From IMG/VR virus record IMGVR_UViG_2563366990_000004: a DNA stretch of 46,456 nt; one strand, given 5' to 3'. Of the stretch, positions 11,400 to 11,760 are shown one piece after another. The stretch's first letter is position 1, and every line of letters begins with the position of its first letter. The notes under the pieces are model-generated. The model was not told where the DNA came from and searched no databases. It saw nothing but the letters and a program-made list of their open reading frames with translations. The position numbers and the translations under genes were made by a program. Source of the stretch: a virus (lineage: Duplodnaviria; Heunggongvirae; Uroviricota; Caudoviricetes).

Positions 11400-11582
11400 A
11401 TGCGAAAGTTCAAAATAATTATTGAAACGGGAATAGCCGGTGGAGATTTTGAGGATGTATTCGAAGTGGACGATGACGCAACACCTGATGAAATTCATGA
11501 CGAAGCAAAAGAAATTTTCTTTAACTACTGCAATTACTCATATCACGAAATAAAAGACGAAGAGGAAGAACAAAATGGCTGA
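11400..11582 (+). CDS. Small acidic hypothetical protein (60 aa)
   Basis: ORF after an AT-rich intergenic region; highly acidic (D/E-rich) product. Confidence 0.4.
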   Translation: MRKFKIIIETGIAGGDFEDVFEVDDDATPDEIHDEAKEIFFNYCNYSYHEIKDEEEEQNG

Positions 11583-11760
11583 TTTTGGTTCAACTAAATA
11601 TAACGCCAGTTTTGAAGAATGGCATGAACTGTTAATGGACTATGCAGAGTTACGCGGTGGAAGTGCCGCCGATGCTGAAGCATGGCGTGATGACTATGAA
11701 GCAGGAAAAACTCCGGTTGAAGCTTATTGTGATGAGTGGGGTGAGGACGATGAAGATTAA
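11575..11760 (+). CDS. Small acidic hypothetical protein (61 aa)
   Basis: Overlaps the previous ORF by 8 nt; product ends …CDEWGEDDED. Confidence 0.4.
   Translation: MADFGSTKYNASFEEWHELLMDYAELRGGSAADAEAWRDDYEAGKTPVEAYCDEWGEDDED

Follow-up and report, generated by a model that had tools for sequence, protein, structure and literature searches.

Phages and plasmids encode small acidic inhibitors and DNA mimics, such as T7 Ocr, ArdA, T7 Gp5.9, Ugi, T4 Arn, and lambda Gam. We compared with these proteins the products of two overlapping genes, ORF1 and ORF2 (open reading frames 1 and 2), located at positions 11400–11760 of a 46,456-nucleotide (nt) viral DNA (Caudoviricetes; IMG/VR record IMGVR_UViG_2563366990_000004). 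This whole stretch, called the window below, is an Escherichia coli lambdoid prophage. Like the known inhibitors, the two products are small, have an isoelectric point (pI) of about 4, show a conserved and dense set of Asp and Glu residues, lack catalytic motifs, and are carried by mobile elements. ORF2 moreover resembles the ArdA-type anti-restriction genes in being found on both phages and conjugative plasmids. However, neither protein is related in sequence or fold to Ocr, ArdA, Gp5.9, Ugi, Arn, or Gam. Monomers of 60 residues are also smaller than most known DNA mimics. As shown below, ORF1 and ORF2 are independently mobile, gene-sized cassettes lying side by side.

Two other systems served for comparison. 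For ORF1, the named reference was T7 Gp2, an inhibitor of the host RNA polymerase (Pfam PF16857, PDB 2lmc and 2wnm). The lengths of 60 and 61 amino acids and the neighboring Ead/Ea22 genes also pointed to orf60a, orf61, and orf63 of the lambda exo-xis region. The lengths are indeed similar, and in the Stx phage ArgO145 the pair sits in an early accessory region among Ead/Ea22 genes. In the window, however, the pair belongs to the right operon, where it comes after the replication genes. BLASTP against these three lambda ORFs gave chance-level matches only, and ORF1 and ORF2 have no Pfam match to DUF1317 (orf60a) or DUF1382 (orf63). This identity was rejected.

Two families of small acidic proteins

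ORF1 (11400–11582, + strand) encodes an acidic protein of 60 amino acids named "DUF7167 family protein" in RefSeq (WP_001224672.1). ORF2 (11575–11760, + strand) encodes an acidic protein of 61 amino acids annotated as "hypothetical protein" (WP_001563024.1). The two genes overlap by 8 nt (11575–11582, + strand, ATGGCTGA), the ORF1 stop codon lying within codons 2–3 of ORF2, and this overlap suggests translational coupling. Asp and Glu together make up 31.7% of ORF1 (net charge −14, pI 4.06) and 31.1% of ORF2 (net charge −15, pI 4.05), compared with 7–19% in the genes around the pair. An earlier note, made from the letters of the window, had described two overlapping small acidic ORFs, the second ending in CDEWGEDDED. 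The lengths, the overlap, the acidic composition of about 31%, the pI of about 4.06, and this C terminus were all verified.

As the window contains 253 ORFs of at least 55 amino acids, ORF length by itself is uninformative. Calculated over the different alleles of related E. coli prophages, the ratio of nonsynonymous to synonymous substitution rates (dN/dS) is 0.087 for ORF1 and 0.086 for ORF2. These values of about 0.09, the matches to family profiles, and the many homologues establish that both are genuine genes under purifying selection.

ORF1 matches Pfam DUF7167 (PF23768) with 53.6 bits, for a gathering threshold of 24.4; its residues 2–53 align with the entire profile (positions 1–60 of 60). 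It also matches the full length of PHROG 1997 above threshold. Its sequence is no different from the rest of the family, and RefSeq gives the identical protein the family name. DUF7167/PHROG 1997 is a family without known function or solved structure. Clustering at 50% identity gives about 97 representatives, almost all of them stand-alone proteins of 50–60 amino acids. We found members in a Klebsiella lambdoid phage, Klebsiella Guernseyvirinae, Enterococcus Herelleviridae, and a Pseudomonas phage. DUF7167 is rare on plasmids (15 records). The family is essentially confined to phages, whose hosts are both Gram-negative and Gram-positive. In a Pectobacterium lambdoid prophage, the gene in front of the ORF2 homologue (57 amino acids, locus positions 4835–5008) overlaps it by the same 8 nt. 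This gene, which has no Pfam hit but a DUF7167-like motif (IEVEVPDTATATDIADFV), is possibly a relative that has diverged or been truncated.

ORF2 is related to PHROG 519, a family of unknown function (E value 4e-23). The match is restricted to the C-terminal half of the profile (positions 76–139 of 143), and the homologues that we collected are stand-alone proteins of 50–70 amino acids. Neither ORF2 nor any of the 69 relatives scanned belongs to a Pfam family. Relatives were identified in 217 phage records, among them those of two virulent types, the Vi01/CBA120-like Ackermannviridae and the KP34-like podovirus phiKDA1. They are also present in Mu-like prophages (Aquitalea), P2-like prophages (Morganella and Salmonella), and other lambdoid prophages. 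A further 560 records are plasmids, of which 516 are conjugative. About 420 IncI2 plasmids of about 60 kb carry a relative with about 90% amino acid identity. Identity to the proteins of unrelated phage families and plasmids is 40–60%.

Acidity is a conserved trait of both families. The net charge of DUF7167 members ranges from −7 to −18 (median −11), with a pI of at most 4.53; the ORF2 family has a median net charge of −10 and a median pI of 4.14. In the latter, acidic residues are conserved at columns E15, E18, D33, E35, D39, D40, E42, D53, and E54.

Both proteins are predicted to be single compact domains of about 60 residues. The AlphaFold2 model of ORF2, built on a 69-sequence alignment, is a three-helix bundle (helices 13–27, 34–42, and 47–55) with a predicted local distance difference test score (pLDDT) of 87.8. 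The conserved residues F13, W16, L20, W37, Y41, G44, A50, and W55 fit the hydrophobic core of this model. For ORF1, the model (pLDDT 78.9) was built on a shallow alignment of 10 sequences and has the order beta (2–9), beta (16–23), alpha (29–40), beta (45–51), followed by an acidic C-terminal helix. Foldseek searches of viral models returned only uncharacterized members of ORF2's own family, and profile searches of PDB sequences with ORF1 and ORF2 gave no match. Searches of Pfam, NCBIfam, and PADLOC likewise matched neither protein to a family of enzymes or DNA-binding proteins. Both are probably too small to be enzymes. As each carries a net charge of about −14, we think that they are unlikely to bind each other and that they more likely act in parallel.

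Gene-sized cassettes in varying contexts

In E. coli prophages, ORF1 never occurs apart from ORF2, and the spacing between them is the same in all 80 related viral contigs. Of 5426 complete E. coli genomes, 1746 (about a third) contain at least 80% of the ORF1–ORF2 module. The chromosome of E. coli JNEC-KY171 contains a near-identical stretch (99.2% over 1.8 kb). The module is also carried by PP818812.1, recorded as "Actinobacillus phage vB_Apl-pPE4" (pPE4), with 93% nucleotide identity to E. coli lambdoid prophage DNA. The YdaT, Ead/Ea22, and Hok genes of this record suggest that it is an E. coli-type phage.

An obligate association of the two genes was rejected, each family occurring without the other. 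In the Klebsiella lambdoid phage, DUF7167 is followed by an unrelated Cys-rich gene. A DUF2800/PD-(D/E)XK nuclease gene lies downstream of DUF7167 in the Klebsiella Guernseyvirinae, and a gene for a DUF3850/ASCH protein lies upstream of it in the Enterococcus Herelleviridae. These two neighbors belong to different families, and a recurrent partner of DUF7167, for example an exonuclease, was therefore also rejected. Conversely, ORF2 is found without DUF7167 in Ackermannviridae, in phiKDA1, in P2- and Mu-like prophages, in some other lambdoid prophages, and on plasmids. In the P2-like prophages, its homologue directly follows and overlaps replication gene A and adjoins the variable region behind this gene. 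On IncI2 plasmids, an ORF2-like gene is part of a co-directional run (locus positions 6294–8974 in NZ_MG489944.1, which also carries mcr-1.1). This run encodes, in order, a CaiF/GrlA-family regulator, DUF1187, the ORF2-like protein, an SPFH-domain protein, and NfeD. The DUF1187 gene of this run is annotated rcbA in one record, and the ORF2-like gene has the same 8-nt overlap with the gene upstream of it. Pfam scans of the neighbors in CBA120, phiKDA1, and plasmid pHN-10 returned nothing useful.

The limits of the ORF2 cassette were defined by comparison with the IncI2 copy. Nucleotide homology extends from the ATG to the last codons, and in every context the gene upstream of ORF2 ends in ATGGCTGA. 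Together, these limits and the shared upstream end indicate that the cassette is exactly gene-sized. The C terminus reads GEDDED in the window versus GDE, an extension that comes from a variant right-hand junction.

The GC content is 37% for ORF1, 45% for ORF2, and 52% for the window. The low value of ORF1 fits acquisition of the DUF7167 cassette from a foreign source; low-GC Enterococcus phages are among the carriers of its relatives.

Possible functions of the two proteins

The earlier note had suggested that the acidic products might be DNA mimics or inhibitors of host defense or repair proteins. The conserved acidity, the compact predicted domains, and the spread of ORF2 over phages and plasmids fit this idea. 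ORF1 and ORF2 resemble no known mimic or anti-defense protein, and no homology to characterized anti-restriction or anti-defense families was found at the level of sequence or fold. An inhibitory or anti-defense role is nevertheless plausible, most of all for ORF2.

Because both proteins are judged too small for catalysis and are uniformly acidic, each would most likely act by one-to-one binding to a positively charged, nucleic acid-binding surface of its target, resulting in competitive, mimic-type inhibition. ORF2 relatives are found in phages of both lifestyles, temperate and virulent, as well as on conjugative plasmids of Enterobacterales, which argues for a role of the anti-restriction or anti-defense type rather than host shut-off. 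Its target would be a threat to any incoming or replicating foreign DNA, for example a restriction or other defense nuclease, or an enzyme processing DNA ends. As DUF7167 is a phage-only family of both Gram-negative and Gram-positive hosts, the target of ORF1 may be broadly conserved, or its role may be of a generic, nucleic acid-like kind; for this family, host takeover is equally plausible. Taken as a whole, we hold that ORF1 and ORF2 act by binding and inhibition against defense only tentatively, with a confidence somewhat short of even.

A more specific form of this proposal is possible but doubtful. ORF2 would represent a new, very widely exchanged family of anti-restriction or anti-defense inhibitors, a minimal three-helix acidic mimic protecting incoming DNA. 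Its users would be lambda-, P2-, and Mu-like temperate phages, Vi01- and KP34-like virulent phages, IncI2 (mcr-1-type) plasmids, and large conjugative plasmids of Klebsiella. DUF7167 would be a second, phage-specific inhibitor family, and the hairpin in the leader of ORF1, described below, would be a translational control shipped with the genes.

Several observations weigh against an anti-defense role. Across the other contexts of the two genes, we found no consistent neighbor or partner gene. The CBA120 homologue of ORF2 is encoded immediately behind the head genes, a position that is not obviously early. On the IncI2 plasmid, about 15 kb of DNA, with repA in it, separates the homologue from the presumed oriT, so that it is not clearly in the leading region. 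The associations with known anti-defense genes are weak. One other prophage carries a Tad2-like gene about 3.5 kb upstream of the ORF2 homologue. In Aquitalea Mu-like prophages, a 66-amino-acid gene (locus positions 6159–6359) right after the ORF2 homologue matches the Acb2/Tad1 hairpin domain with 19.9 and 15.7 bits, below the cut-off of 27, and might be an anti-defense neighbor. Literature searches with DUF7167, PF23768, the RefSeq accessions, and peptide strings retrieved no paper, and PHROG 519 is mentioned only in phage genome descriptions. Likewise, neither protein appears in the supplementary data of phage accessory-gene screens or of a study of plasmid leading regions.

The pair consists of already-catalogued hypothetical families, and the locus is an ordinary one, but the spread of ORF2 across elements makes it a fair candidate for anti-defense screening. 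If it is an anti-defense gene, it would be among the most widely shared, being present as part of the pair in about one-third of complete E. coli genomes. It is also found on hundreds of IncI2 plasmids, whose type of backbone bears mcr-1 in the example analyzed here, and in Ackermannviridae phages of the type used therapeutically. Knowledge of its target would bear on plasmid spread and phage host range.

Instead of counteracting defense, one or both proteins might contribute to host takeover by binding RNA polymerase, an H-NS-like nucleoid protein, or a replication or recombination enzyme, as T7 Gp2, Gp5.5, and Gp5.7 do. The sequence comparison with Gp2 speaks against this explanation: aligned with hhalign, DUF7167 and Gp2 have a probability of 0.1%, and BLASTP gives an E value of 0.27. 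ORF1 has no match to Pfam RNA_pol_inhib, which recognizes Gp2 itself with 97.5 bits. Arg56 and Arg58 of Gp2 bind the jaw of RNA polymerase, and the third strand of ORF1 has no Arg counterpart to these residues. Furthermore, a shut-off factor would be useless to the approximately 500 conjugative plasmids carrying ORF2 relatives. We consider host takeover unlikely as an explanation of the pair.

The proteins could also be accessory modulators of the element's own DNA transactions, acting as chaperones or regulators of a basic replication initiator, a recombinase, or SSB, or as antitoxin-like neutralizers of a basic protein encoded next to them. The position of the pair directly downstream of the replication genes in lambdoid prophages is consistent with such a role, as is that of ORF2 behind gene A in P2-like prophages. 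In the window, moreover, the two ORFs downstream of the pair encode basic proteins (pI 10.1 and 8.9). However, the neighbors vary: in ArgO145 and pPE4, an Ead/Ea22 gene stands in place of these basic ORFs. The replication systems found beside ORF2 (lambda P/DnaT type, P2 gene A, IncI2 RepA, and Mu) are unrelated to each other, and cassette edges that coincide with gene edges are expected of a self-sufficient function. This makes a modulator role distinctly improbable. A type II toxin–antitoxin system formed with the basic downstream ORFs was rejected, given the varying neighbors and the absence of a PADLOC hit.

Operon, leader, and mosaic flanks

In JNEC-KY171, the integrase of the matching prophage is encoded beside tRNA-Ser and mtfA. 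In the window, upstream of the pair and on the same strand, are genes for a YdaS-like regulator, YdaT, a DnaT-domain initiator, a lambda-P-like protein, DUF1627, and DUF4406, and an Ead/Ea22 gene. Downstream of the pair in JNEC-KY171 are further small genes, RusA, and the antiterminator Q. With the replication, YdaS, and YdaT genes upstream and RusA and Q downstream, the pair thus lies in the early-right operon, at the position of the lambda nin region. Successive genes of this operon overlap or abut, and no terminator-like site was found on the + strand between 10600 and 12400. During lytic growth, the pair would be co-transcribed with the genes for replication and those of the nin type, with no promoter of its own, and the translation of ORF2 would be coupled to that of ORF1 through the ATGGCTGA overlap.

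ORF1 is preceded by a conserved leader of 95 nt (11305–11399, + strand) with an AT-rich 5′ half and two hairpins in its 3′ half. The same leader, of about 95 nt, is found ahead of ORF1 in 83 related loci, behind at least five different upstream genes that take the place of the Ead/Ea22 gene of the window. This constancy indicates that the leader belongs to the mobile unit and travels with the pair.

The earlier note had described the DNA upstream of the pair as AT-rich and had suggested that it contains a promoter. The first statement is correct for 11305–11350 (28% GC) and does not apply to 11305–11399 as a whole (46% GC), the 3′ half being made of the G+C-rich hairpins. The second was not borne out. 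In a consensus scan, whose reach is limited to sigma-70 promoters, no site with at least 9 of 12 matches was detected on the + strand around the pair. When 11270–11420 was scanned more tolerantly, three sites with 8 of 12 matches and poor hexamers emerged, none of which has both hexamers inside 11305–11399. The co-directional, overlapping organization of the operon also argues against a separate promoter.

These data bear on a further explanation, according to which the pair is a moron-type unit expressed in the lysogen from a promoter in the AT-rich leader and involved in lysogenic conversion. The conserved leader moving with the pair behind differing genes, the low GC content of its first 46 nt, and the contrast in GC content between ORF1 and the window, suggestive of a foreign origin, would all fit a moron. 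However, a self-contained unit of this kind was not recognized: in addition to the lack of a suitable sigma-70 site, the pair is not followed by an intrinsic terminator, and the end of ORF2 lies within the next reading frame. We regard the moron explanation as very unlikely. That the two ORFs are spurious or non-functional and persist by hitch-hiking in mosaic prophage DNA, as their shortness and the absence of functional annotation or literature might suggest, is effectively refuted by their conservation, judging from the low dN/dS values, the 40–60% identity of ORF2 homologues in unrelated phage families and plasmids, the presence of DUF7167 in Enterococcus phages, and the confident predicted folds.

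Both leader hairpins are supported by an alignment of 17 distinct leaders. Hairpin 1 (11344–11362, + strand) consists of GAGGG, a 9-nt loop, and CCCTC; its pairing is maintained, two G-C pairs having changed to G-U. Hairpin 2 (11376–11393, + strand; ACCGCCC-GGCA-GGGCGGT) is located exactly between a Shine–Dalgarno-like AGGAG (11371–11375, + strand), conserved in the alignment and 24 nt upstream of the ORF1 start codon, and a point 6 nt before the ATG. Its seven pairs are conserved: one G-C pair has been exchanged for A-U by compensation, and several further changes are wobble-preserving. As divergence among the leaders is low, this covariation provides modest evidence for the hairpin. Hairpin 2 is also present in the single-sequence fold of the window leader. 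The loop is GGCA in the window and GAAA, of the GNRA type, in most relatives. The leader has no Rfam match at E values up to 1.

In T4 genes 25 and 38, a hairpin brings the Shine–Dalgarno sequence to an effective spacing. Hairpin 2 probably sets the translation of ORF1. It could do so in a similar way, by reducing the effective spacing of the strong AGGAG to about 6 nt, or it might instead mask the weak GGCGGU of its own 3′ arm. In the consensus fold, an upstream UCCU (11338–11341) pairs with the AGGA (11371–11374) of the Shine–Dalgarno sequence, a pairing that would mask the latter.

The flanks of the pair are mosaic. The Ead/Ea22-like gene upstream (10675–11304, + strand; Pfam Ead_Ea22, E value 1e-26) is part of the context and lies outside the mobile pair. 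At the right-hand junction, a chimeric 39-codon remnant (11750–11869, + strand) combines an Ead/Ea22-type start (MKINYQA) with the last approximately 30 codons of a PAPS-reductase (NinC-like) gene. It matches PHROG 424 at profile positions 385–433 of 460, and RefSeq annotates a PAPS-reductase pseudogene without N terminus at this site. Megablast aligned the junction with the 3′ ends of NinC/PAPS-reductase genes of Stx phages. This frame is a scar of mosaic recombination. Stop/start overlaps tie it to ORF2 on one side and, through an ATGA at 11866, to the gene that follows.

On either side of the pair are Ead/Ea22-like genes or 5′ ends of such genes (10675–11304, 11750–11775, and 12262–12642), as is also the case in ArgO145 and pPE4. 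The right boundary of the pair corresponds to the conserved Ead start (M-x-x-I-N/D-Y-Q-A), and cassette shuffling may therefore use these repeated 5′ ends as recombination linkers.
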